64,000 nt of DNA from a phage. Under the pieces are notes generated by a model. That model saw only the letters and a list, made by a program, of their open reading frames with translations. It was not told the DNA's origin and did no database searches. The stretch lies in sequence record PZ445489.1; one strand, written 5' to 3'. Made by a program: the position numbers and the translations under genes. Of this stretch, positions 1 to 64,000 are shown one piece after another (position 1 is the stretch's first letter; every line of letters begins with the position of its first letter).

Positions 1-1317
1 ATGGAAGTATCAAGACCCTATGTTAATACAGTAGATGTTATTGATTTCGGAATAGATAAGCGTTTCTTTCGTTTACCCGTTTCCGGAATACTAGCACAAG
101 AGGGTATCACACCTAATGGCCCTCAAATAGCAATTATCAATGCCCTAGAAGACCCTAGACATCGTTTTGTAACGGCATGTGTATCACGCCGTGTAGGTAA
201 ATCTTTTATAGCGTATACACTTGGGTTCCTAAAATTGCTGGAACCTAATGTGAAGGTACTAGTAGTTGCCCCTAACTATTCACTAGCTAATATCGGATGG
301 TCTCAGATTCGTGGTCTTATTAAGAAGTACGGCCTACAAACCGAACGTGAAAACGCTAAAGATAAAGAGATTGAGTTAGCTAATGGTTCTCTATTTAAAC
401 TAGCTTCCGCGGCTCAGGCTGACTCCGCGGTTGGACGTTCATATGATTTTATCATCTTTGACGAGGCGGCAATTTCCGATGTGGGTGGTGATGCCTTCAG
501 GGTTCAGCTGCGTCCTACCCTAGATAAGCCTAATTCTAAGGCTCTATTTATTTCCACCCCTCGCGGAGGTAACTGGTTTAAAGAGTTTTACGCCTACGGA
601 TTCGATGATACGTTACCTAACTGGGTGTCTATTCATGGTACATATCGTGATAACCCACGTGCTGATTTGAATGACATTGAGGAGGCACGCCGTACGGTTA
701 GTAAAAACTACTTCCGCCAAGAATACGAAGCTGACTTCTCTGTATTCGAAGGACAGATATTTGATACCTTTAATGCTATCGATCATGTTAAAGATCTCAA
801 AGGTATGCGTCACTTCTTTAAAGATGATGAAGCATTCGAAACGTTGCTTGGTATTGACGTTGGTTATCGTGATCCTACAGCAGTTCTTACTATTAAATAT
901 CATTACGATACGGATACTTACTATGTATTAGAAGAGTACCAGCAGGCGGAGAAAACTACAGCTCAGCATGCTGCTTATATTCAGCACTGTATAGATCGTT
1001 ATAAAGTTGATCGTATTTTTGTTGACTCTGCAGCAGCTCAGTTCCGCCAGGACTTAGCTTATGAGCATGAAATTGCCTCAGCTCCAGCTAAAAAATCTGT
1101 CCTAGATGGCCTAGCATGCCTGCAAGCACTGTTCCAACAGGGCAAGATTATTGTAGATGCCTCATGTTCCTCCTTAATTCATGCATTGCAGAATTACAAG
1201 TGGGACTTCCAAGAAGGTGAAGAGAAATTATCACGTGAAAAACCACGTCATGATGCTAACTCTCACCTTTGTGATGCGCTCCGCTATGGAATTTATTCTA
1301 TTTCCCGTGGTAAATAA
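1..1317 (+). CDS. Terminase large subunit (ATPase + nuclease); ORF begins at window edge so true start may lie upstream
   Basis: 438 aa; Walker-B-like FIIFDEAA, N-terminal ATPase region then C-terminal acidic nuclease region; first gene of head module. Confidence 0.85.
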   Translation: MEVSRPYVNTVDVIDFGIDKRFFRLPVSGILAQEGITPNGPQIAIINALEDPRHRFVTACVSRRVGKSFIAYTLGFLKLLEPNVKVLVVAPNYSLANIGWSQIRGLIKKYGLQTERENAKDKEIELANGSLFKLASAAQADSAVGRSYDFIIFDEAAISDVGGDAFRVQLRPTLDKPNSKALFISTPRGGNWFKEFYAYGFDDTLPNWVSIHGTYRDNPRADLNDIEEARRTVSKNYFRQEYEADFSVFEGQIFDTFNAIDHVKDLKGMRHFFKDDEAFETLLGIDVGYRDPTAVLTIKYHYDTDTYYVLEEYQQAEKTTAQHAAYIQHCIDRYKVDRIFVDSAAAQFRQDLAYEHEIASAPAKKSVLDGLACLQALFQQGKIIVDASCSSLIHALQNYKWDFQEGEEKLSREKPRHDANSHLCDALRYGIYSISRGK

Positions 1318-3580: not shown

Positions 3581-4213
3581 ATGACACAAGCTGCTATTGA
3601 CTATAACAAGTTAAAATCAGCACCCGTTCATTTAGATGCTTATATTAAATCTATTGATAGTGAATCCAAAGAGGGCGTTGTAAAAATACGTGGATTCGCT
3701 AATACAATTAGTAAAGATCGCGCTGGCGATGTAATCCCTGCTTCCGCATGGAAAACATCTAATGCACTTACTAACTATATGAAAAACCCGATTATTCTTT
3801 TCGGACACGATCATCGTCGTCCAATCGGTAAGTGTATTGATCTTAACCCTACTGAAATGGGTCTCGAAATCGAATGCGAGATCTATGAAAGTTCTGACCC
3901 GGCTATCTTTTCACTAATTAAAAACGGTGTACTGAAAACTTTTAGTATCGGATTCCGCTGCCTAGATGCAGAGTGGGATGAAGCTACTGATATATTTATT
4001 ATTAAAGATTTAGAACTATACGAAGTTTCGGTAGTTTCTGTACCTTGTAATCAGGACTCAACGTTCAATCTCGCTAAGAGCATGAATGGTCATGATTATA
4101 CTGAATGGCGTAAATCTTTTACTGCAATAAGTTCTAAAGCTGTCCCAGCTCAAGAACGTAATCTTTCTGAACTAGAAAAACTTGCGATAGCTTTAGGCTA
4201 CGTTAAAGAATAA
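3581..4213 (+). CDS. Prohead maturation protease (HK97-type)
   Basis: 210 aa; DRAGDVIPASAW and ILFGHDHRRPIG motifs typical of prohead protease family; sits between decoration and capsid genes. Confidence 0.8.
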   Translation: MTQAAIDYNKLKSAPVHLDAYIKSIDSESKEGVVKIRGFANTISKDRAGDVIPASAWKTSNALTNYMKNPIILFGHDHRRPIGKCIDLNPTEMGLEIECEIYESSDPAIFSLIKNGVLKTFSIGFRCLDAEWDEATDIFIIKDLELYEVSVVSVPCNQDSTFNLAKSMNGHDYTEWRKSFTAISSKAVPAQERNLSELEKLAIALGYVKE

Positions 4214-4230
4214 CGGAGAATTATTTAAAA

Positions 4231-5607
4231 ATGACTATTGATATTAATAAGCTGAAAGAAGAACTTGGTCTGGGTGATCTGGCTAAATCTCTGGAAGGTC
4301 TGACCGCTGCTCAGAAAGCTCAGGAAGCTGAACGTATGCGTAAAGAGCAGGAAGAAAAAGAACTGGCTCGTATGAATGACCTGGTTTCTAAAGCAGTTGG
4401 CGAAGATCGTAAGCGTCTGGAAGAGGCTCTGGATCTGGTTAAGTCTCTGGATGAGAAATCTAAGAAGAGCGCAGAACTGTTTGCACAAACTGTAGAAAAA
4501 CAACAGGAAACTATTGTTGGTCTTCAGGATGAAATTAAATCTCTGCTGACAGCTCGTGAAGGTCGTTCCTTCGTTGGTGATAGTGTTGCTAAAGCACTGT
4601 ACGGTACTCAGGAAAACTTTGAAGATGAAGTTGAAAAACTGGTTCTGTTATCTTATGTAATGGAAAAGGGCGTATTCGAGACCGAACACGGTCAAAAACA
4701 CCTGAAAGCAGTGAATCAGTCTTCTTCTGTAGAAGTTTCTAGTGAAAGCTATGAAACTATTTTCTCTCAGCGTATTATCCGTGACCTGCAGAAAGAGCTT
4801 GTAGTTGGCGCACTGTTCGAAGAACTGCCGATGTCCAGTAAGATTCTTACTATGCTGGTTGAACCGGATGCTGGTAAAGCTACTTGGGTTGCTGCTTCTA
4901 CTTATGGTACTGATGCAACTACTGGTGATGAAGTTAAAGGTGCTCTTAAAGAAATCCACTTCAGTACTTACAAACTGGCTGCTAAGTCCTTCATTACTGA
5001 TGAAACTGAAGAAGATGCAATCTTCTCCCTGCTGCCACTGCTTCGTAAGCGTCTGATCGAAGCACACGCTGTTTCTATTGAAGAAGCCTTCATGACTGGT
5101 GATGGTTCCGGTAAACCGAAAGGTCTGCTGACTCTTGCTAGTGAAGATAGTGCTAAAGTTATTACTGAAGCTAAAGCTGATGGTTCCGTACTGGTAACTG
5201 CTAAAACTATCTCTAAATTGCGTCGTAAACTGGGCCGTCATGGTCTGAAACTGAGCAAACTGGTACTGATTGTATCTATGGATGCTTACTATGATCTGCT
5301 GGAAGATGAAGAATGGCAGGATGTTGCCCAAGTTGGTAATGATGCTGTTAAACTGCAGGGTCAGGTTGGTCGTATTTATGGTCTGCCGGTTGTAGTTTCT
5401 GAGTACTTCCCAGCTAAAGCTACTTCCGCAGAGTTCGCAGTTATTGTTTATAAAGATAACTTCGTAATGCCACGCCAGCGTGCTGTTACTGTTGAACGTG
5501 AGCGCCAAGCTGGTAAACAGCGTGACGCATACTACGTTACTCAGCGTGTTAACCTGCAACGTTACTTTGCAAATGGCGTTGTATCTGGTGCTTACGCTGC
5601 ATCTTAA
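4231..5607 (+). CDS. Major capsid protein precursor with N-terminal scaffolding (delta) domain
   Basis: 458 aa; charged coiled-coil N-terminus then HK97-like body; host-optimal codon usage; terminator follows. Confidence 0.9.
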   Translation: MTIDINKLKEELGLGDLAKSLEGLTAAQKAQEAERMRKEQEEKELARMNDLVSKAVGEDRKRLEEALDLVKSLDEKSKKSAELFAQTVEKQQETIVGLQDEIKSLLTAREGRSFVGDSVAKALYGTQENFEDEVEKLVLLSYVMEKGVFETEHGQKHLKAVNQSSSVEVSSESYETIFSQRIIRDLQKELVVGALFEELPMSSKILTMLVEPDAGKATWVAASTYGTDATTGDEVKGALKEIHFSTYKLAAKSFITDETEEDAIFSLLPLLRKRLIEAHAVSIEEAFMTGDGSGKPKGLLTLASEDSAKVITEAKADGSVLVTAKTISKLRRKLGRHGLKLSKLVLIVSMDAYYDLLEDEEWQDVAQVGNDAVKLQGQVGRIYGLPVVVSEYFPAKATSAEFAVIVYKDNFVMPRQRAVTVERERQAGKQRDAYYVTQRVNLQRYFANGVVSGAYAAS

Positions 5608-5626
5608 TACAGGCTTTTCAGCCGAT

Positions 5627-5652
5627 AAGGAGAGCTTCGGCTCTCCTTTTTT
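5627..5652 (+). terminator. Rho-independent terminator after capsid gene
   Basis: AAGGAGAGC-TTCG-GCTCTCCTT hairpin followed by TTTTTT. Confidence 0.8.
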
Positions 5653-5666
5653 ATTGGGAAAAATAA

Positions 5667-6179
5667 ATGCAAATAATCACAGCTGAAGACTATAGATTAT
5701 ATGGTGGGTTAAAACGACCTGAACTAGAATCTGGAGTAGAGATGATGATTACTGCTGCCAATGCGCTGATTACTAGCCTTTTAGGTATGGATGATGCTGA
5801 TGCGGTAGACCAGTTAATCAATACAAAACCTACTCGTAAAAAATACTTCTTAAGTTCTCCCTCGGCTACTTCAGTAACCAAAATGACTATTAACGACAAG
5901 GAGATAGATCCAGAACAATATAAGTTGTATTCTGATGGGGTTATACTTCTTAAATTTAATCCCCCAGAAGGTTATATGGGTGTAGAATACACACAAGGTG
6001 GATTTAATCCAATACCTGAGGATCTCAAACTTGCAGCATGTATGCTAGTAGATCATTGGCATAAACAGGATTACCGTCAAGCTAAAACAATTGGCGGAGA
6101 AACAGTTACTTTTAATAATACTAAGTCTGGTATTCCAGAGCATATTCGTACTATTATTGAAGTTTACAGGAGAGTATAA
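5667..6179 (+). CDS. Putative head completion / connector protein
   Basis: 170 aa ORF immediately downstream of capsid gene in head-tail junction position; no recognisable catalytic motif. Confidence 0.45.
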   Translation: MQIITAEDYRLYGGLKRPELESGVEMMITAANALITSLLGMDDADAVDQLINTKPTRKKYFLSSPSATSVTKMTINDKEIDPEQYKLYSDGVILLKFNPPEGYMGVEYTQGGFNPIPEDLKLAACMLVDHWHKQDYRQAKTIGGETVTFNNTKSGIPEHIRTIIEVYRRV

Positions 6180-6946
6180 TGTCTCTTTCTGATTTAGCTA
6201 CACAAATTATTAAGGAGCAGCTAGATAATGTTGGGCGTTCCGAGAACAATAAGAATACTGTTGTATATTCTGTTGAAACAGGACTGAAAGATCCTACTAG
6301 AGATGGTACTGTTGCTCAGGTATCTTTTAAATTCTCAAAACCTATATCCCAAGATCTCCTTAATGTTAGGACCGCTTCTATTCTAAAAGCAGTTTCTTCT
6401 AGCTTAGATCTAACAGGAGATTTAGGTGCTCTAGAGAATTTAATACAAGCAACCGCTGGTAAAAAATCTGCTGTAGGTAAAAAACGTTCTACTGGTAGAG
6501 TTCAAGTAAACTTTGGGGATCCTAGAGACGTAGAAGATGGATATTCTGGTGCAGTAACAGGTGCTTCTGGTCGTTTTGTATCAAATAGTAATATGAAGGT
6601 TATTCTGGAGTTGGTTGCTAAAGAATACTTAATAAAGGATATGAAAAAAGCAGGAGCTCCACTTAAATTTAGAACAGGTCGTTTTGCAAACTCTCTAAAA
6701 GTTAAAGATGTTATGCTTAGAGATGCTGGAACTAGCAAAGGTGCTCCGGAATTAAACGTTACATATAATTATATGGTACGTCCATATTCAGTATTTAATC
6801 CTGCAGTATCTACATATCGAAGATTGTCACTACGACCCTACCCAGGTGCTAGAAACCCTCAAAGACTAATTGGAGAGGCGATAGCTAAAGCTGCAAGAGA
6901 CTTAATTCACTCCAGATACAAAATTAAGGTTAATCAAGGAACCTAA
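6179..6946 (+). CDS. Hypothetical structural protein (head-tail joining region)
   Basis: 255 aa ORF, translationally coupled to neighbours within the structural operon. Confidence 0.4.
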   Translation: MSLSDLATQIIKEQLDNVGRSENNKNTVVYSVETGLKDPTRDGTVAQVSFKFSKPISQDLLNVRTASILKAVSSSLDLTGDLGALENLIQATAGKKSAVGKKRSTGRVQVNFGDPRDVEDGYSGAVTGASGRFVSNSNMKVILELVAKEYLIKDMKKAGAPLKFRTGRFANSLKVKDVMLRDAGTSKGAPELNVTYNYMVRPYSVFNPAVSTYRRLSLRPYPGARNPQRLIGEAIAKAARDLIHSRYKIKVNQGT

Positions 6947-6949
6947 TAA

Positions 6950-7435
6950 ATGGATCACAGAACAAGTATAGCACAAGCTCTGGTTGATCGAATAGCCAAA
7001 CAAATGGATGGCTCTCAACCAGATGAATATTTTAATAACTTGTATGGAAACGTCTCACGTCAAACTTATAAGTTTGAGGAGATACGAGAGTTTCCTTATG
7101 TTGCAGTTCATATCGGAACTGAAACTGGGCAGTATCTTCCCTCAGGTCAACAGTGGATGTTTTTAGAACTTCCTATCCTGGTGTATGATAAAGAGAAAAC
7201 AGACATTCAAGAGCAACTTGAAAAACTCGTAGCGGATATAAAAACCGTTATTGACACAGGTGGAAATTTAGAATATACTGTTAGTAAACCTAATGGATCG
7301 ACCTTCCCATGTGAGGCGACTGATATGAGCATTACATCAGTTAGTACAGATGAGGGTCTACTGGCCCCATATGGTTTAGCAGAAATAAATGTAACAGTGA
7401 GGTATCAGCCTCCACGTAGGTCACTTCGCAGATAA
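6950..7435 (+). CDS. Putative tail terminator / tail completion protein
   Basis: 161 aa ORF immediately upstream of the tail tube gene. Confidence 0.4.
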   Translation: MDHRTSIAQALVDRIAKQMDGSQPDEYFNNLYGNVSRQTYKFEEIREFPYVAVHIGTETGQYLPSGQQWMFLELPILVYDKEKTDIQEQLEKLVADIKTVIDTGGNLEYTVSKPNGSTFPCEATDMSITSVSTDEGLLAPYGLAEINVTVRYQPPRRSLRR

Positions 7436-7461
7436 GTTACAGATTAGGAGAAAATAATTAA

Positions 7462-8868
7462 ATGTCTTTACAACTATTACGTAATACTCGAATCTTCGTG
7501 TCTACGGTTAAGACTGGTCACGATAAGACCAACACGCAAGAGATTCTAGTTCAGGATGATATTTCTTGGGGTCAGGACAGTAACTCAACAGATATTACTG
7601 TTAACGAAGCTGGTCCGCGTCCTACTCGTGGTTCTAAACGTTTTAACGATTCCTTGAATGCAGCTGAGTGGAGCTTCTCCACCTATATCCTGCCATACAT
7701 GGATAAAACTACTAGCAAACAAATTGTTCCTGACTATATGTTATGGCATGCACTTTCTAGTGGTAAAGCTATTAACCTTGATGGAGATACTGGAGCACAT
7801 AATAATGCTACTAACTTCATGGTTAACTTCAAAGATAACGCATATCACGAACTGGCTATGCTGCATATTTACATTCTAACTGACAATGCGTGGAGTTACA
7901 TTGACTCTTGCCAGATCAACCAGGCAGAAGTTAACGTTGATATTGAAGATATTGGTCGTGTAACTTGGTCTGGTAACGGTAATCAGCTCATTCCGTTAGA
8001 TAGCCAACCATTTGACCCTGATGCATTAGGTATTGATGATGAAACTTATATGACTATTCAGAGTTCTTACATTAAGAACAAGTTAACTATCCTAAAAATT
8101 AAGGATATGGATTCTGATAAGGCATATGATATTCCTATTACTGGTGGTACTTTTACCATTAATAACAACATCACGTACCTAACCCCGAATATTATGTCAC
8201 GTGTAAATATTCCAATCGGCTCATTTACGGGTGCGTTTGAGTTAACGGGTTCTTTGACAGCTTACCTTAATGATAAGTCTCTTGGTTCTATGGAACTGTA
8301 CAAAGATCTGATTAAAACCCTTAAGGTAGTTAACCGTTTTGAAATCGCACTTATTTTGGGTGGAGAATATGACGAGGAACGTCCGGCAGCTGTGTTAGTT
8401 GCTAAACAGGCGCACGTTAATATCCCTACTATTGAGACTGATGATGTACTTGGTACTTCAGTAGAGTTTAAAGCTATTCCTACTGATTTGGATACTGGTG
8501 ACGAAGGTTATCTTGGATTTTCTAACAAGTATACAAAAACTACTGTGGCTAATCTGATTGCTACGGGGGATGGTGCTAAAATTCCTCCAGTTCCCGTTAA
8601 ATCCATTACAGTTAAGTCGGCAGGTGAGGCTGTTTCTGTAACAAATAGTAATACTTTACAGATGTCTGTTGAGGTAACACCTTCAGAAGCTACTAATAAG
8701 GCTGTAACTTGGTCTATTTCTAGTGGTAACGCAGCTACAATTGATGCAGAATCTGGGTTATTAACAGCTGATGCCTCTAAAACTGGTGCAGTTACTGTGA
8801 AGGCTGTAGCTAAAGATGGTTCTGGTGTAGAAGGTACTAAAACTATCACAGTTAGTGCTGGTGGTTAA
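7462..8868 (+). CDS. Major tail tube protein with C-terminal Ig-like (BIG2-type) domain (pb6-like)
   Basis: 468 aa; C-terminal ~90 aa Ig-like segment (SITVKSAGEAVSVTNSNTLQMSVEVTPSEATNKAVTWSISSGN); position before chaperones and tape measure. Confidence 0.8.
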   Translation: MSLQLLRNTRIFVSTVKTGHDKTNTQEILVQDDISWGQDSNSTDITVNEAGPRPTRGSKRFNDSLNAAEWSFSTYILPYMDKTTSKQIVPDYMLWHALSSGKAINLDGDTGAHNNATNFMVNFKDNAYHELAMLHIYILTDNAWSYIDSCQINQAEVNVDIEDIGRVTWSGNGNQLIPLDSQPFDPDALGIDDETYMTIQSSYIKNKLTILKIKDMDSDKAYDIPITGGTFTINNNITYLTPNIMSRVNIPIGSFTGAFELTGSLTAYLNDKSLGSMELYKDLIKTLKVVNRFEIALILGGEYDEERPAAVLVAKQAHVNIPTIETDDVLGTSVEFKAIPTDLDTGDEGYLGFSNKYTKTTVANLIATGDGAKIPPVPVKSITVKSAGEAVSVTNSNTLQMSVEVTPSEATNKAVTWSISSGNAATIDAESGLLTADASKTGAVTVKAVAKDGSGVEGTKTITVSAGG

Positions 8869-45485: not shown

Positions 45486-45683
45486 TTAGACACTTAAAAT
45501 ACTTCTAATCTCTTCTATATACTTATCTACTTTTTTAGCATCTACTTTATTTAGTTTTCCTATATCAAAACTAGGATCAGTAAACATTCTAGCTATCTCT
45601 ATCTCTAGAGACTTACTAATTTTCCCTGTAGTATTCCACTTAGAAATCTTACCTTTTATTTTCCAAAATTCCTTATTCATCAT
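45486..45683 (-). CDS. Hypothetical small protein
   Basis: 65 aa, Lys-rich; last ORF of the operon. Confidence 0.4.
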   Translation of the reverse strand: MMNKEFWKIKGKISKWNTTGKISKSLEIEIARMFTDPSFDIGKLNKVDAKKVDKYIEEIRSILSV

Positions 45684-46065
45684 TTAATCCCGGAACATAT
45701 ATCCCAACACGGTTTAATTGTTCTTTAGCTTCTTTGAGAATATCTGGAGTGTACTCCCAAATATCATCTTCCACCTGTAAAAGATGGGGCGAACAACCAT
45801 CATCAGGCACACGACATATGGCAAAACCACGTGGATGGAACAAAGAGAAATTTAGTGCAACAATTAAACCCATAGCAGACAATTCATTCCAATCCAATTC
45901 CCATTCCCCAGCGTAGCCTGATAGGCAAACACCAATACAGGGATCGTCTATTTGCTGCTCCGGAAAAGTGAAGGAGACTTGTCTTACTCCCAACCAACGT
46001 TGTAGCAGCTTCTCCGCACGTTTCACCAAACTAGGGTCAATCTGACGCCAATATACTTGTTCCAT
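45673..46065 (-). CDS. Hypothetical protein, paralog of 46075..46503
   Basis: 130 aa; shares PCIG, W-EL-EMGL-ALN-LF-P and Y-PGL blocks with the adjacent ORF. Confidence 0.5.
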   Translation of the reverse strand: MEQVYWRQIDPSLVKRAEKLLQRWLGVRQVSFTFPEQQIDDPCIGVCLSGYAGEWELDWNELSAMGLIVALNFSLFHPRGFAICRVPDDGCSPHLLQVEDDIWEYTPDILKEAKEQLNRVGIYVPGLNDE

Positions 46066-46074
46066 TCTGCCTCC

Positions 46075-46503
46075 TTAAGCAGTTAAACCTGGGATCATAT
46101 ACCCGAAACGTCGAAGTTTCTGAATCCCCTCATTTACTTCTTCCGGTGAGTAAGACCAACCATAACGTTCATTAACCTGAAAACCAGGAGATTCACTAGT
46201 TTTATAGTTAACAACGAGGCGATGCTTAGCAGGCATAAACAGCTTATAGTTTAACGCAAAAACTAAGCCCATTTCATCTAACTCTTTCCAGCCAACAATT
46301 TCTTCAAGACCATCTTCTACCTGCACAATTAAACCAATACAGGGGGCCTCATCAATATCATCTTTAAAAGCAAAGGAGATTTCATTATTCTCACACCATA
46401 TTTTCAGAGCATTAATAGCCTCATTGTACAGGTTGGCTGGAAGAGTATGCCAAAAATTAACCAATATTGGGTTAGCTTCTTTAGAGAATACATTATTGAA
46501 CAT
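46075..46503 (-). CDS. Hypothetical protein, paralog of 45673..46065
   Basis: 142 aa; same conserved blocks as neighbour, tandem arrangement. Confidence 0.5.
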   Translation of the reverse strand: MFNNVFSKEANPILVNFWHTLPANLYNEAINALKIWCENNEISFAFKDDIDEAPCIGLIVQVEDGLEEIVGWKELDEMGLVFALNYKLFMPAKHRLVVNYKTSESPGFQVNERYGWSYSPEEVNEGIQKLRRFGYMIPGLTA

Positions 46504-46505
46504 AT

Positions 46506-47012
46506 TTACACCTTAAATTGTTGTAAGGATTTACACATTTCAAGATCTGGGCTAAATTCTAGCATATAGCTAACAGCTTTTAAATCTTGAAGATTTATTC
46601 CAGTTCTACCATTGACTATAACTGTTGGATACTGATACATCATAGCACCAGCGTCATCCAGTACACACCAATGTTTGAGCTTATGCTTTTCAACGAAGCG
46701 AAGAACAGAATTACCCCTAGATAGCCCACCACCAGTAAAATCCGTTGTACCAAGAAAACGATCGATAAGACCTAATCCGGTCATAATCTGAACGTTCTCC
46801 ATCTCATTCCTGACAGAGAACCATGAGGATACTCCAACAATCATTATCGGAGAAGGACGAATAAAGTCCTGAAAAGCCTTGAGAAGCGGTTTGAAAACCC
46901 AGTCACTTCCAAAGAAAATCTTTTCATCATCAGGTGCATGATGGTGGGAGATGCTCGAATTGAGCACCCCATCAATGTCTAGAAAAATAATTGGAGTATT
47001 ACTTATTTCCAT
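46506..47012 (-). CDS. HAD-superfamily phosphatase-like protein
   Basis: 168 aa; N-terminal FLDIDGVLN (DxDxV nucleophile motif) and later acidic LDDAG segment. Confidence 0.55.
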   Translation of the reverse strand: MEISNTPIIFLDIDGVLNSSISHHHAPDDEKIFFGSDWVFKPLLKAFQDFIRPSPIMIVGVSSWFSVRNEMENVQIMTGLGLIDRFLGTTDFTGGGLSRGNSVLRFVEKHKLKHWCVLDDAGAMMYQYPTVIVNGRTGINLQDLKAVSYMLEFSPDLEMCKSLQQFKV

Positions 47013-47181
47013 TTTTGTTCCTTTCTAAGAACGTATCATACTCAACCGTATTCACATATATAACACCATAGTCATCGGATTTATAGTCCATTTCCCACAA
47101 CTCACAGCGATAGTACCAACTACCGTCCGCCCATACAAATATATCATCAGGGTGTGTATACACAGATTTAATTATGGACAT
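46999..47181 (-). CDS. Hypothetical small protein
   Basis: 60 aa ORF with overlapping start/stop coupling inside the operon. Confidence 0.35.
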   Translation of the reverse strand: MSIIKSVYTHPDDIFVWADGSWYYRCELWEMDYKSDDYGVIYVNTVEYDTFLERNKNGNK

Positions 47182-47996
47182 ATTTGTTTCCCTGGCATAT
47201 AAGGTCTACCCTCTAGATGAGCTTCTACACGAGCAATAAAATCAGGGTCACTAAAAGCATCTACCGCACCTTTACTCCAGTAAGGAATACCACGATCTTC
47301 CAACTGGTACATCTCACTACGAGTCATACCTTGATAGCCCGGTTCTGCCGCTAGGGCACTATCGTAGTAGTTAACTACCATTAATTTGGCAGCAGTCAAA
47401 TTAAGAACAGGAAATAATTCCCAGTAGAAGTTAATTACTTGGTTAGAACAACCAACCACAATGATCATATCTTGACTGGTAATATCATCAAAAACATTGT
47501 ACATTTCTGTATATGCTGGAGCATGCTCACCAAAGAAGATTACATTAGGTTTAACCCATTTATAATCATCTGGGTCAATAGAGCTATACCCAACATCAAT
47601 AATTCGTTTATTACTACTATTGTAGCTGTCAGCTACAACAACCTCTTTTAAATATCCGTGAATGTGCAGAATGTCACTATGTGGAACGCCAGCACGTTCA
47701 ATAAGGTCATCAACATTGGTAGTCAAGTTTACTACTTGACCTGGATATTGTTTATACCATTCACCAATACGCAAATGTGCAAGATTGGGTTCAACAGTTT
47801 TTAGCTCTTCACGACGCTTGTTGTAAAACATATGGGTTTTATGATAAAAATTACCACGAAAGGCATGAATATTACATACTTCTTCTAGATTATAATCATC
47901 CCACAATGCTTTACCACTAGCAGTATCAGTACGAAAAGCTCGTACACCACTTTCAACACTCAAACCCGCACCGCTAATAATAATTAATCTACGCAT
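47172..47996 (-). CDS. Sir2 (sirtuin)-family NAD-utilising protein lacking zinc-ribbon cysteines
   Basis: 274 aa; GAGLSVESGVRAFR, LTTNVDDLIERAG, catalytic-type HG, VIFFGE and IVVGCS motifs; no CxxC pairs. Confidence 0.65.
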   Translation of the reverse strand: MRRLIIISGAGLSVESGVRAFRTDTASGKALWDDYNLEEVCNIHAFRGNFYHKTHMFYNKRREELKTVEPNLAHLRIGEWYKQYPGQVVNLTTNVDDLIERAGVPHSDILHIHGYLKEVVVADSYNSSNKRIIDVGYSSIDPDDYKWVKPNVIFFGEHAPAYTEMYNVFDDITSQDMIIVVGCSNQVINFYWELFPVLNLTAAKLMVVNYYDSALAAEPGYQGMTRSEMYQLEDRGIPYWSKGAVDAFSDPDFIARVEAHLEGRPYMPGKQICP

Positions 47997-59963: not shown

Positions 59964-60665
59964 ATGAAAGTAAAACCATTTGGTATGCTAGATATTGAAT
60001 CTCTAGGAACTCCGGGAGATTGTGGTACTACTCATATTGTAATGCCTTCTTTCGCTTTTGTGGCTATGCATGGGATTGATAAAGACCCTGATCTAGTGTT
60101 TGTTACTTTAGATGTACAAGATCAGCTTAATTCTGGAGCTAAAGTTACGGCATCTACTCTAGCATTCTGGATGGATCAAGCTAAACATAGCCCGTCTGCT
60201 ATCCACATTATGGAAGCTATGAAGGAACGTAATCCAAAACTGATTGCCTTCCAAAATGGTAAACATCATTGCACTAATAAACTCGGCTCTAACTATGCTG
60301 CCTTCTCTATGGCTAAAAACATTATGGAATTGGCTCTAGGCGACAATGCTTTGTACTATGGCAATGGCCCAGAGTTTGATATGACTATCTACTCTGCAAA
60401 TACGTTCCATGCTGGAACCAATGAAGAGGTAGTTCCGTGGAAATTCTGGAATTTGGGCAATGTTCGATCTCTTCGTAATCTCTGGATGCAAGCTGGATAC
60501 AGTTATAAGGCTCTAGAGACCGAAGGTATTAGCTGGGCAATAGCTAAAATGGAGAAGATGGACACTATTCGTTATGGGATCTATCCGGTTAAGCATGATC
60601 CTGCATTTGATGCCTTAGTTGAAAGCTATTGTGTTGCAGCTATGATCGAAAAAATGAAAATTTGA
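59964..60665 (+). CDS. DEDDh-family 3'-5' exonuclease (DexA-like)
   Basis: 233 aa; N-terminal MLDIESLG (D-x-E) and C-terminal HDPAFDA (H-x4-D). Confidence 0.55.
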   Translation: MKVKPFGMLDIESLGTPGDCGTTHIVMPSFAFVAMHGIDKDPDLVFVTLDVQDQLNSGAKVTASTLAFWMDQAKHSPSAIHIMEAMKERNPKLIAFQNGKHHCTNKLGSNYAAFSMAKNIMELALGDNALYYGNGPEFDMTIYSANTFHAGTNEEVVPWKFWNLGNVRSLRNLWMQAGYSYKALETEGISWAIAKMEKMDTIRYGIYPVKHDPAFDALVESYCVAAMIEKMKI

Positions 60666-60666
60666 T

Positions 60667-60695
60667 TTGCTTCCGGCCCCAAAATTCTGTATAAT
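60667..60695 (+). promoter_or_regulatory. Early sigma70-type promoter
   Basis: TTGCTT-17 nt-TATAAT with downstream TTCATAAATTTGAGA box. Confidence 0.65.
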
Positions 60696-60735
60696 ATATT
60701 CATAAATTTGAGAAAACAATAAAAGGAAAACAAAT

Positions 60736-60918
60736 ATGCCAGTATCTAAAAATGTTCGTAAAAATGGTAAGAAAGCTACTCGTAATCTGGGTATCCGTCG
60801 TATGGCTGAACGTCAATCAGGTATCCAGAAAATCTTTGATCTGCTAAATCGTGCTAATCCTAAAATTGATAACAGTAACGATACTGTTCTGCGCACTCTG
60901 CTGGCAATTGGTCTGTAA
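60736..60918 (+). CDS. Hypothetical small basic protein
   Basis: 60 aa ORF directly after promoter. Confidence 0.4.
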   Translation: MPVSKNVRKNGKKATRNLGIRRMAERQSGIQKIFDLLNRANPKIDNSNDTVLRTLLAIGL

Positions 60919-60971
60919 TAGACCAAATTTAAACAAATTCAAATCTCAAACTTCATATAAGGAAGCAAATA

Positions 60972-61610
60972 ATGACTACTCGTATCTCTAAAACTCGCGC
61001 TCTGGCAACTATCAAATCTCTGGAAGCTAAAATCCGTAAAGCTACTGAACAACAGCTTCTGATCGCTGTTGGTGAAGGTAAGGATAAAAATAAGGTTGTA
61101 GTTGGCGCTGCAATCGAAGTAGACGATCTATCTGCTCGTATTAAGGCAGATTTCCAGTCTCTGCTGGATATGATGTCCCAGCGTGATCGTATCAAAGCTG
61201 CTCTGATTAAGAGCAATGCGGAAACAATCGTTGAGATTGGCTCTCGTAAGATGACTGTTGCGGAAGCAATTGAAGCTAAGCGTTCTATGGAACTTAAAGC
61301 TCAACTGCTGGCTAACATGCGTAAGCAGTTCCATGCTGCTACGGTTAAGTTTAACACGCAGAAAGTACAGTTTGATGCTAAATATGAGCGTTTGCAGGAT
61401 AGCATGGCTACCCGCGATAAGAAAACTTCCGAAGATGAAGTTAAAATGCAGCTCAACCTGCTGGAACTCAAGAATACTCCATTCTTGATTGATCCGCTGG
61501 AACTGGAGAAGCTGATTAAGCAGCATGACGAGGAATATCAGGACTTTGCAACAAATGTTGACTTTGTTCTGTCCGAGTCTAACGCCTCTACCTTCATTGA
61601 AGTAGAGTAA
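60972..61610 (+). CDS. Hypothetical protein (coiled-coil rich)
   Basis: 212 aa, host-optimal codon usage, AGGAAG RBS. Confidence 0.5.
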   Translation: MTTRISKTRALATIKSLEAKIRKATEQQLLIAVGEGKDKNKVVVGAAIEVDDLSARIKADFQSLLDMMSQRDRIKAALIKSNAETIVEIGSRKMTVAEAIEAKRSMELKAQLLANMRKQFHAATVKFNTQKVQFDAKYERLQDSMATRDKKTSEDEVKMQLNLLELKNTPFLIDPLELEKLIKQHDEEYQDFATNVDFVLSESNASTFIEVE

Positions 61611-61993
61611 TAATTTAAAAGCTAGTAAATCGGTAGACGAAAGCCCAAGCATCTTACCTCGCAGCAGCGGTTGAAATACGAGGTTAAATAAGACCGCTGA
61701 CCATACTATAAGGTATAATCTATTGGAGATTATGTTTATTACATCAGACATTTAATCTGACACGTAAAAACAAAGCGTCGTTGATATTACCGACACAACT
61801 TCAAAGATCAACATTTAAGTATGAAAGCTGAAAAGTTTAAAGAACTCAAACTTCTAAACTTCTAAAGCTAAAAGATGCAAAGTATTCGTTGATGATTCAA
61901 ACCCTAGATCAAAGGTACATGGCTCATAAGATATGGCCTGTGGCGCCTCTAGGCTGTTTATCGGTTTACTAGTTTCACAATTTAAAAATGTAT

Positions 61994-62022
61994 TTGCTAA
62001 TTTACTAAATTATATGTATAAT
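61994..62022 (+). promoter_or_regulatory. Early sigma70-type promoter
   Basis: TTGCTA-17 nt-TATAAT. Confidence 0.6.
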
Positions 62023-62052
62023 ATATTTTTAAATTGATGAAACGAGGCTATT

Positions 62053-62370
62053 ATGACTTTTCATATTTTGATTGATGATGTGCGTAATCTTCACGGAATG
62101 GACATTATCATTCGAACCCCAGAAGCCGCTGTCGAGTTTCTGAATAAAACTGATACCACAGGCCACTTCGTTTATATGGATAATGACTTGGCTGTAGATG
62201 GTATGGAAGGTTATCAAATTCTTCGTTTACTCTTAGAATTTGGGCAGAGACCAAAGAAAGTGGTACTAGTAACCTCGAACCCAGTAGCTAAGCAACATAT
62301 GCGTAATGATTTGCTTGACTTAGGGTACAAAGAAAACCCCAATCGTGTTGAATATGATTGGCAGGAGTAA
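62053..62370 (+). CDS. Standalone receiver (REC/CheY)-like domain protein
   Basis: 105 aa; ILIDDV, VYMDNDL...GMEGYQIL and VVLVTSNP segments resemble response-regulator receiver motifs. Confidence 0.4.
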   Translation: MTFHILIDDVRNLHGMDIIIRTPEAAVEFLNKTDTTGHFVYMDNDLAVDGMEGYQILRLLLEFGQRPKKVVLVTSNPVAKQHMRNDLLDLGYKENPNRVEYDWQE

Positions 62371-62375
62371 AAAGA

Positions 62376-62825
62376 ATGAAGGCAGCTTTGCTTTTAGTAG
62401 CTGCCCTTACCTTCAGCTTTAGTAGTCAGGCATCGCACGATGCAAAAGAAATAGATTGCATTGCTAAAAATATCTATTTCGAAAGTCGTGGTGAGGGCAT
62501 AAAGGGAATGACGGCGATTGCACACGTTACTAAAAACCGTGTAAACTCCGGTAAATTCCCAGATTCCTACTGTAAAGTAGTATATCAGTCTAACCAGTTC
62601 TCTTGGGTATCTAAGAGACCAAAAGTTGATAAAACTGATGAGGCTTGGCAAACCGCTAAGAATTTAGCTAGAGTGATATACTACGTTGATTTACCACAAG
62701 ATCCTACACATGGAGCACTATACTTCCATAGTGGTAAAGATAAACCTTACTGGACAAAGAAGTTTAAGAAAACAACTAAGATTAAGGGACATACGTTTTA
62801 TAAACCTGTTGTCACTAAAACTTAA
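62376..62825 (+). CDS. Secreted cell-wall hydrolase-like protein (SleB-type) with signal peptide
   Basis: N-terminal MKAALLLVAALTFSFSSQA signal peptide; IAKNIYFESRGEG...AIAHVTKNR...QFSW core; AGGAG RBS. Confidence 0.55.
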   Translation: MKAALLLVAALTFSFSSQASHDAKEIDCIAKNIYFESRGEGIKGMTAIAHVTKNRVNSGKFPDSYCKVVYQSNQFSWVSKRPKVDKTDEAWQTAKNLARVIYYVDLPQDPTHGALYFHSGKDKPYWTKKFKKTTKIKGHTFYKPVVTKT

Positions 62826-62833
62826 AAATTTAC

Positions 62834-62862
62834 TTGCTTAAATACTTAAATTTCCGTATAAT
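62834..62862 (+). promoter_or_regulatory. Early sigma70-type promoter
   Basis: TTGCTT-17 nt-TATAAT. Confidence 0.6.
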
Positions 62863-62893
62863 ACTTCCATAAATTAATGAGAGGAAGCGAAAT

Positions 62894-63063
62894 ATGAAAT
62901 CAGTTGTAATTATTGGTGTTAACACTCGCGGTATTCGTACTACGAAAATTGTTAAAACTTCTAACGTTGCTGAGATCACTACGAACCCTAAAAAGTTTGA
63001 TTTCGCCAAAGTCTCAGCAGTTATGACAGAACAATCTTTTAACCAAGCGTTAGGAATGAAATA
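62894..63063 (+). CDS. Hypothetical small protein (56 aa, below ORF-track cutoff)
   Basis: ATG with GAGGAAG RBS after promoter; stop overlaps next ATG. Confidence 0.3.
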
Positions 63064-63507
63064 ATGGAAGAGAATATTTTAGATGTTTTGCGTAGAGCTT
63101 TGCAGGATTCTAAGTTTAATGGTTCTGATAAAGAAGTCGCTAAAAGCTATCAGACCATAATCGGGGATCTTCAGCGTATTAATAAAGATTTCATCACTTC
63201 TGAACAATTTGTGTCTTATCTCAAAGCTCAACTAAAAAGCATTAACCAGATGAAAGCTAAACTTCATGGTCAAGATCTTGATAGTTATAGCTTGCAGTCC
63301 GCTCAGTATGAGTACATTCTAAATAAGTGGTTGCAGGAGTATCTGCCCCCTCAGTTATCTGATACTGAGATTCGTAAATACTTTGCAGAATTAGTTAAGC
63401 TAAACCCTGGAATTACAAAAGGTATGCTGATGAAAGCGATTAAGGAAGAATTTCCTGGGCGTTATGATGGTGGTACTGCTGCTCAGATTGCTGGTGAATT
63501 TAATTAA
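63064..63507 (+). CDS. GatB/YqeY-domain-like protein
   Basis: 147 aa; C-terminal GMLMKAIKEEFPGRYDGGTAAQIAGEF resembles YqeY-type segment. Confidence 0.45.
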   Translation: MEENILDVLRRALQDSKFNGSDKEVAKSYQTIIGDLQRINKDFITSEQFVSYLKAQLKSINQMKAKLHGQDLDSYSLQSAQYEYILNKWLQEYLPPQLSDTEIRKYFAELVKLNPGITKGMLMKAIKEEFPGRYDGGTAAQIAGEFN

Positions 63508-63515
63508 AAATTTAT

Positions 63516-63544
63516 TTGCTAAATGCTTATAAATTCTGTATAAT
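63516..63544 (+). promoter_or_regulatory. Early sigma70-type promoter driving an ORF-free region
   Basis: TTGCTA-17 nt-TATAAT with downstream TTCATAAATTAGAGAAC box; no ORF of at least 60 aa follows on + strand to window end. Confidence 0.6.
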
Positions 63545-64000
63545 ATATTCATAAATTAGAGAACAGCGAGCCGATTACGCTGAACTTGTCTTAATGTAAG
63601 ATGCGTCGAGCACTAAGATTCGTTGAATAGAGTCGGTAGGTTAGTTGTAAAACTAGTACACAGGGGGCGGCAATCCCGGTTAGTGGCTAGAACGTGTAAA
63701 ATGAGGCGTCTGAAACCTCTCCCCTAAACTCTTCTCTAATTTATAAATAGTGGGGTGTGGAAATCACTTATGTAGTAACACTGCCGTCCTAGTATAATTG
63801 GTATTATCAAGCCGTAACTGGTGGAAGATATAGATTCGAATCCTACGGTCGGTAAGAACTGGATAACTGATGCTTTTAACGTAAAAGCTTCCGAGGTTAG
63901 TTGCGCACTGCCTAAACCACGCGGTAGTTGGTTCCAGGCTAACCAACCAGTCTGCTGAATAGTTTTATTACGATTTAACTATGTCCAGGCTAAAGAAGAA

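Follow-up and report, generated by a model that had tools for sequence, protein, structure and literature searches.

By nucleotide comparison, the DNA analysed in this work ("the window", 64,000 nucleotides of sequence record PZ445489.1) is that of a T5-like phage (Tequintavirus): its segment between 60 and 64 kb is 98.6% identical to Tequintavirus genomes, e.g. NBSal005, FFH_1 and SP15, and is carried by about 450 phage records. Within this segment lies a small gene of the cREC family (Table 1), which corresponds to T5.084 in the T5 reference genome and to T5p082 in the st0 record, and whose product is annotated in T5 as a hypothetical protein similar to KVP40.0304. The open reading frame that a sequence-only reading of the same DNA had proposed is present with its ATG and TAA codons, and all the motifs quoted from its translation were found, namely ILIDDV (residues 5-10), VYMDNDL (40-46), GMEGYQIL (50-57) and VVLVTSNP (70-77). 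The gene ends the early nucleotide-metabolism block (nrdA/B, frd, thy, rnh), with a DUF7022 protein and a 3'-5' exoribonuclease-like protein as its upstream neighbours; it is followed by a SleB-like hydrolase, a YqeY-like protein, and then by "RNAX" and about 24 tRNA genes. The earlier assignment to a phage early region was correct, as the gene has nucleotide-metabolism genes on one side and the tRNA block of a T5-like phage on the other.

In the T5 reference record, a promoter is annotated directly upstream of T5.084, at the position equivalent to the sigma-70-type site of Table 1. The gene occurs in about 450 T5-like phages with 80-100% identity, and pairwise comparisons of the T5-like orthologues gave dN/dS values of 0.08-0.20; the copy of the window is under strong purifying selection. 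Because it possesses a ribosome-binding site, a promoter-like site, about 450 carriers, a low dN/dS and a Pfam match with E=1.5e-14, it is a real, expressed and selected protein-coding gene.

Table 1. Features of the cREC locus and related features of the window (nucleotide positions refer to the window, residue numbers to the 105-aa protein)
Feature	Position	Strand	Remarks
cREC-family gene, T5.084 / T5p082 orthologue	62053..62370	+	ATG start, 105 aa, TAA stop; Pfam, PHROG, T5 annotation
Promoter-like site, sigma-70-type, TTGCTA-17-TATAAT	61994..62022	+	10/12 matches; ~30 nt before the start codon
Ribosome-binding site GAGG	62044..62047	+	5 nt before the ATG; read from sequence
D8-D9-V10-R11 codons	62074..62085	+	acidic pair ending β1, equivalent to CheY D12/D13; R11 family-specific
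D17 to R21 codons	62101..62115	+	loop/β2 segment replacing helix α1
D43-N44-D45-L46-A47 codons	62179..62193	+	D-[H/N]-D-L-G motif, end of β3
T74-S75-N76-P77 codons	62272..62283	+	end of β4; T74 equivalent to CheY T87
G91-Y92 codons	62323..62328	+	equivalent to CheY G105-Y106; 13 residues left, β-hairpin, no α5
β1	residues 4-7		both AlphaFold2 models
Loop	residues 8-17		both AlphaFold2 models; in place of α1
β2	residues 18-20		both AlphaFold2 models
Helix	residues 23-32		both AlphaFold2 models
β3	residues 39-42		both AlphaFold2 models
Helix	residues 53-62		both AlphaFold2 models
β4	residues 69-72		both AlphaFold2 models
Helix	residues 77-89/90		both AlphaFold2 models
Short β-hairpin	residues 93-94 and 100-102		both AlphaFold2 models; in place of α5
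SIR2	47172-47996	-	in the window
HAD_SAK_2 "Swiss-army-knife" RNA-repair phosphatase	46506-47012	-	in the window
Two tandem DUF7415 proteins	46075-46503, 45673-46065	-	in the window

The SleB-like cell-wall hydrolase, which carries a signal peptide, begins with an ATG at 62376, 5 nt after the stop codon of the cREC gene. We rejected a functional coupling of these two co-transcribed genes, because their adjacency is not conserved: it is lost in the distant demerecvirus My1, where the cREC gene lies between rnh and the DUF7022 homologue, and it is broken in phage Ace (L032, 3323-3847) by a homing endonuclease inserted between the cREC and SleB-like genes. In Salmonella phage Kenya-K44 an HNH endonuclease is fused in frame to the N-terminus of cREC (P0033, 273 aa), so that, together with the insertion in Ace, there are two cases of homing endonucleases targeting the cREC spot.

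The cREC gene is preceded by about 440 nt devoid of ORFs (61611-62052), which hold the promoter next to the gene, and divergent promoters are annotated in the equivalent region of the T5 st0 record. Two long ORFs overlap on opposite strands (60972-61610 on the plus strand and 61128-61751 on the minus strand), and two GenBank records of T5 disagree on the strand there (T5.085 "tail fiber protein" versus T5p083). The plus-strand ORF matched no Pfam family, and a "tail fiber" label within an early region seems to be annotation carry-over. On the other side of the cREC gene, a second TTGCTA-17-TATAAT promoter-like site (63516-63544, plus strand) is followed by the start of RNAX, a 719-nt stable RNA of the T5 record with unknown function, which is located upstream of tRNA-Arg. 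An Rfam scan of positions 60500-64000 returned only a sub-threshold tRNA-like match in the RNAX region (63783-63854, 22.3 bits versus a gathering score of 29), downstream of the ORF and unrelated to it; some records annotate "tRNA-OTHER" in this region. The deletion of T5 st0 ends inside the YqeY-like gene (L035, 7668-7847), about 1 kb downstream of cREC, and removes the YqeY-like gene, RNAX and tRNA-Arg, with cREC and the SleB-like hydrolase kept. As it leaves cREC intact, this deletion is silent on the dispensability of the gene.

The T5-like cREC locus has no adjoining gene for RNA repair or for NAD/ADP-ribose processing, and a homologue of the Rnl1-type RNA ligase is absent from the 64-kb window; Rnl1-bearing phages belong mostly to other lineages (14 Salmonella phages with Rnl1 versus 269 with cREC). 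On the opposite strand, about 14 kb from the cREC gene (46.5-48.0 kb), the window encodes a SIR2 protein and a HAD_SAK_2 phosphatase. They are the SP15-type pair described in PMC9503650, where the sirtuin and HAD neighbourhood of phage SP15 was predicted to constitute an NAD-dependent RNA-end repair system.

The 105-aa protein is almost certainly a member of the cREC family with a receiver-like fold. In a Pfam hmmscan it matched PF20274 (cREC_REC, "cyclic-phosphate processing receiver domain") as the sole significant family, over positions 2-86 of the 88 in the HMM and with 54.8 bits versus a curated cutoff of 27. The sequence-only reading had described it as a CheY-like receiver protein, to be checked against receiver profiles; the CheY-like fold stood (see below), but the classical response regulator did not, as PF00072 (Response_reg) remained unmatched at E<=10. 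The closest CheY match among PDB sequences had E=0.9, and the profile compared with PDB receivers gave E-values of 0.04-0.5. The top scores of the PDB sequence search, viz. designed β-trefoils and the TALE protein Hax3 (E=6.8e-07), were rejected as artefacts, because the score sums many insignificant repeat matches, each stretch having i-E>190. Searches of NCBIfam and PADLOC gave zero matches, and PHROGs assigned the protein to phrog_1479, of unknown function. Orthologues already bear the cREC name in GenBank (PP094244, PV016700), in UniRef/UniProt and in a viral structure database, and precomputed PF20274 assignments are present on 32/32 close homologues and on all 120 among the distant matches listed. 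A profile search of 1.84 billion representatives revealed at least 434 clusters at 50% identity (E<=1e-3), and a 90%-identity database contains about 1770 cREC clusters. Nearly all members are standalone proteins of about 100 aa, and the median pI of the family is acidic (5.15).

The family was defined, and its role in the processing of cyclic phosphates predicted, by Iyer, Anantharaman, Krishnan, Burroughs & Aravind (2021, PMC7824862; 2022, PMC9503650), who reported its linkage to RNA-repair genes and proposed cADPr as another substrate. According to the earlier paper (PMC7824862) cREC never co-occurs with histidine kinases, and the later one (PMC9503650) describes the family as "experimentally uncharacterized". 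Our literature search on T5.084/T5p082, KVP40.0304 and PF20274 found nothing beyond these two articles and no experimental work. The annotation is already known: the family is defined, it is in Pfam and the orthologues are named, and the window adds no new kind of element.

With the rest of the family, the T5-like protein shares the full-length HMM match, the invariant DD, D-x-D, T/S-x-N and GY motifs, the standalone organization with about 100 aa, the phage setting and the database name. On the other hand, the T5-like clade has DND where the majority has DHD (Asn instead of His between the aspartates), it lacks the C-terminal K/R present in most members, and its gene is without an adjoining RNA ligase, Nudix or kinase gene. 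The protein agrees with the cREC family in the HMM match, in the receiver-like fold with its conserved aspartates and in the absence of histidine kinases from the neighbourhoods sampled. It falls outside the classical receiver family, from which it departs in the HMM match, the Lys, and helices α1 and α5.

We built two AlphaFold2 models, one from 16 orthologues (mean pLDDT 90.6) and one from 113 diverse homologues (96.0), which agree in secondary structure. In these models the protein has a trimmed CheY-like receiver fold with the order β1-loop-β2-α-β3-α-β4-α-β hairpin. The structure prediction suggested by the sequence-only reading thus bears out the receiver fold, but not a complete (βα)5 with α1 and α5. 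Both these helices of CheY are missing in both models, and judging from the spacing of motifs, the shortening holds for the whole family: the DD pair and the central Asp are separated by 34 residues (5th-95th percentile of the family 32-41) versus 45 in CheY, and beyond the Thr the family has 32 residues left versus 42 in CheY, whereas the distance from the Asp to the Thr is the same as in CheY. In CheY, α1 and α5 cover one and the same face of the sheet. As both are absent from cREC, this face would be exposed or otherwise covered.

Conservation was counted over 145 cREC representatives with mutual identity of at most 50%. D8, D9, D43 and D45 are each present in 144/145 sequences, G53 and T/S74 in all 145, N76 in 143/145, Y92 in 132/145, G91 in 117/145 and P77 in 116/145, and position 44 is occupied by His in 88 and by Asn in 51 of the 145. 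Near-invariant and specific to this family are R11 (137/145), D17 (129/145) and R21 (142/145); N76 is also family-invariant. The complete set of family invariants comprises D8, D9, R11, D17, R21, D43, D45, G47, G53, P67, T/S74, N76 and Y92, and in the AlphaFold2 models all of them are located at C-terminal ends of strands, which is where the active sites of Rossmannoid proteins lie.

An hhalign comparison with CheY (low probability, single-sequence template) and the hmmsearch alignment to the XynC receiver suggest the equivalences D43=D57, D45=N59, G53=G65, T74=T87, G91-Y92=G105-Y106 and N95-P96=K109-P110 (residues of CheY on the right). The assignment of D43 to D57 carries some uncertainty at the level of sequence alignment, as one weak alignment (with a designed protein) sets D45 rather than D43 on the acceptor Asp. 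The position of CheY K109 is taken by N95 and varies across the family (Lys in 20, Asn in 19 and Ile in 17 of 145). Four out of five residues of the canonical receiver quintet are therefore present (D8, D9, D43, T74) and the Lys is missing, so that of the conserved Asp/Thr/Lys catalytic positions, on which the sequence-only reading had staked its case, a proper alignment retains the Asp and the Thr but not the Lys. In summary, cREC keeps the carboxylate/hydroxyl pocket of the receivers and has lost α1, α5 and the conserved Lys.

We analysed gene neighbourhoods in 23 diverse loci selected for the presence of cREC (from metagenomes, viral contigs and genomes) with 141 neighbour proteins, a small sample biased to the subclade with the "LVTSNPVG" motif. 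Among the 141 proteins no Pfam family recurred beyond 2-3 occurrences (AAA, HNH, NYN, AAA_33), and in an all-versus-all BLAST none was shared, except between two related genomes of CPR bacteria. A general association with RNA repair was not reproduced in this sample, 22/23 loci being without any repair or NAD link. The single RNA-repair cassette was found in a metagenomic phage (L013, IMGVR_UViG_3300024054_000020, cassette at 3840-8010), in which the order of genes is Tad3, an ORF, cREC, a P-loop kinase of the AAA_33 family, Rnl1 RNA ligase and two calcineurin-like phosphoesterases, and in which the kinase gene overlaps cREC. In this locus an anti-defence gene (anti-Thoeris Tad3) is placed directly beside the RNA-repair module. 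When phages were selected by Rnl1 instead, cREC was found nearby in 2/4 of them. Klebsiella phage KpS11 has a cREC gene that overlaps the RNA ligase gene at the 3' end of the latter, with SIR2 encoded two genes downstream, and in phAPEC8 cREC lies about 1.1 kb upstream of the RNA ligase. At 1-3 kb downstream of cREC, KVP40-like phages encode a DUF2828/DUF7788 protein and an RNase-H-like DUF458 protein. In the CPR bacteria (L028 and L029, MAGs of Candidatus Falkowbacteria / Parcubacteria), cREC is found among dinB, fmt, def and priA. These homologues are syntenic, sitting between the DinB-like polymerase and fmt-def-priA, with an NYN RNase nearby. Such cellular contexts indicate that the cREC family is not strictly phage-borne.

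As the best explanation of these data, with about an even chance of being right, we propose that the T5.084 orthologue is a standalone cREC protein acting as a small, early-expressed enzyme and not as a signalling switch. For its most likely role in T5-like phages, a phosphoesterase mechanism in the processing of RNA ends or ADPr, we would put the chance a little short of even. Receivers catalyse both the phosphorylation of the Asp that follows β3 and the hydrolytic removal of its phosphoryl group, with a metal held by the acidic pair, and a second Asp two positions further is the hallmark of HAD phosphatases, in which it provides the general acid/base and fast turnover. We infer that the conserved pocket of cREC is catalytic; the roles of individual residues proposed here follow the strand topology of the models. 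D8 and D9 would hold a divalent metal, and D43 would attack the phosphate to form an aspartyl-phosphate intermediate, with D45 as the putative general acid/base, placed two residues on as in HAD phosphatases. T74 and N76 may position the phosphoryl group, and R11 and R21 may supply the positive charge that Lys gives in CheY.

The substrates are predicted to be cyclic or terminal phosphates on nucleotide-derived molecules. Candidates are the RNA ends with a 2',3'-cyclic phosphate that arise when anticodon or toxin RNases of the host cleave tRNA or mRNA, and the ADP-ribose cyclic phosphates formed as by-products when RNA ends are processed in an NAD-dependent way. In T5-like phages, the enzyme would act from a solo gene that has an early promoter to itself and lies shortly upstream of the tRNA genes of the phage, with the phage SIR2, the HAD "Swiss-army-knife" phosphatase about 14 kb away and host ligases as possible partners. 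T4 Pnkp, which combines a kinase with a DxD-type phosphatase, works together with Rnl1. The combination of the kinase, cREC and Rnl1 in the metagenomic phage parallels this pair and thereby supports the published prediction of cyclic- or terminal-phosphate healing at broken RNA ends, or of the processing of ADP-ribose cyclic phosphate. However, the lack of a neighbouring repair gene and of Rnl1 in the window speaks against RNA repair in T5-like phages, the occurrence of a single repair cassette among the 23 sampled loci also counts against the proposal, and the acidic pI of the family does not favour direct binding of RNA.

The resemblance of cREC to HAD phosphatases such as the 3'-phosphatase of T4 polynucleotide kinase-phosphatase is only an analogy in the presumed way of working: an Asp-x-Asp as nucleophile and acid/base, Ser/Thr, a basic residue and, on a Rossmann-like sheet, two acidic residues for the metal are common to both, but the DxD follows β3 in cREC and β1 in HAD, so that the motifs are on different strands, and the Pfam scan gave no HAD family match to the 105-aa protein. 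With the 2H phosphoesterases (LigT, CPDase), cREC would share the predicted reaction, i.e. the opening of 2',3'- or 1'',2''-cyclic phosphates, and similar kinds of gene neighbourhoods have been described for both (PMC9503650), but the folds are unrelated. The 105-aa sequence contains no H-x-T/S motif, its four His residues being followed by I-L, G-M, F-V and M-R, and has no match to the 2H families of Pfam.

Three other readings have to be weighed against this proposal. The function suggested by the sequence-only reading, namely that of a single-domain response regulator which is phosphorylated by histidine kinases of the host or by acetyl phosphate and serves as a phosphate sink or decoy, is the least supported, and we consider it very improbable. 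The receiver fold found in the models agrees with it, and D8/D9, D43, T74 and Y92 stand where CheY has D12/D13, D57, T87 and Y106, which makes autophosphorylation from small molecules chemically conceivable. The likeness to CheY and Spo0F (PF00072) extends to the acidic pair after β1, the Asp after β3, the Thr after β4 and the aromatic residue on β5, and the likeness to the single-domain receivers known as phosphate sinks (extra chemotaxis CheY proteins) to a standalone, receiver-like chain of about 100-120 aa. Those sinks, however, have a full (βα)5 fold, a complete set of Asp/Thr/Lys and a cognate CheA, none of which applies to the cREC protein, which belongs to a separate family without a match to PF00072 or a kinase partner and instead possesses the additional invariant residues R11, D17, R21, D45 and N76. 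In receivers α1 is the main kinase-docking surface, and the output elements are the α4-β5-α5 face and the Lys. The Lys is not conserved in cREC, and α1 and α5 are missing across the family, as reflected in the shorter distance from the DD pair to the Asp and in a tail reduced by 10 residues, while the invariant Asp at D+2 recalls the HAD phosphatases with their fast turnover and not switches. Among the 141 neighbour proteins of the 23 cREC loci (a small sample) no kinase family occurs two or more times, and no kinase is present in the annotated cREC neighbourhoods of T5-like, My1, KVP40-like, KpS11 and phAPEC8 phages, in line with the published report that cREC never occurs together with histidine kinases (PMC7824862). 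Members of the family also occur in phages infecting widely different hosts and, beside housekeeping genes, in CPR bacteria, a distribution which does not suggest tuning to the kinases of one host.

The main rival to the phosphoesterase proposal is solo counter-defence, in which the cREC pocket would bind or hydrolyse nucleotide immune messengers of the host and take no part in RNA repair; the targets might be cADPR isomers (Thoeris/TIR), cyclic oligonucleotides (CBASS, type III CRISPR) or cCMP/cUMP (Pycsar). This possibility seems to us unlikely, although a small solo gene in accessory early regions, without a conserved partner in 22/23 loci, is what one would expect of phage anti-defence proteins, which usually act alone, the acidic pI fits a small-molecule substrate more than RNA, cADPr is among the substrates proposed by Iyer et al., and T5-like phages have no linked RNA ligase. 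Tad3 is encoded two genes upstream of cREC in the metagenomic phage, another locus (L003) has an ArdA anti-restriction gene about 1.2 kb upstream, and a "phage anti-restriction nuclease" adjoins cREC in phAPEC8, but such anti-defence neighbours are anecdotal; moreover, neither PADLOC nor the anti-defence models gave a match to the protein, signal sponges and nucleases with a receiver-like fold are not listed in the literature searched, and in other clades cREC overlaps RNA ligase and kinase genes in operon-like arrangements, which points to RNA-end chemistry. It could also be envisaged that cREC is a non-catalytic binder, whose bare sheet face dimerises or clamps a host or phage protein and whose acidic pocket is structural or regulatory. 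Such a binder would be in keeping with the loss of α1 and α5, which in CheY shield one face of the sheet, and with the small size, acidity and lack of a partner in most genomes. We find it quite improbable, as 11 near-invariant polar or charged residues are located at the C-termini of strands in sequences sharing <35% identity, a clustering typical of a catalytic or ligand pocket and not of a protein interface, and as the gene is operonically coupled to RNA-end enzymes in some clades.

The phosphoesterase proposal can be carried one step further, into a scenario that we regard as somewhat unlikely. Here cREC, as a stripped-down receiver domain, would be a third and so far unrecognised catalytic solution for the opening of cyclic phosphates, beside the 2H and the HAD/metallophosphoesterases, operating via an aspartyl-phosphate and used in T5-like phages for solo counter-defence. 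In these phages it might destroy signals of the cyclic-nucleotide or cADPR type, or neutralise cyclic-phosphate RNA ends, outside a repair operon. If this is true, what was a receiver fold now serves as an enzyme that repairs RNA or degrades immune signals. T5.084 belongs to the conserved core genes of T5, which is a tractable model phage, and is present in about 450 sequenced relatives; the function of this gene would bear on the whole cREC family with its at least 434 clusters at 50% identity.
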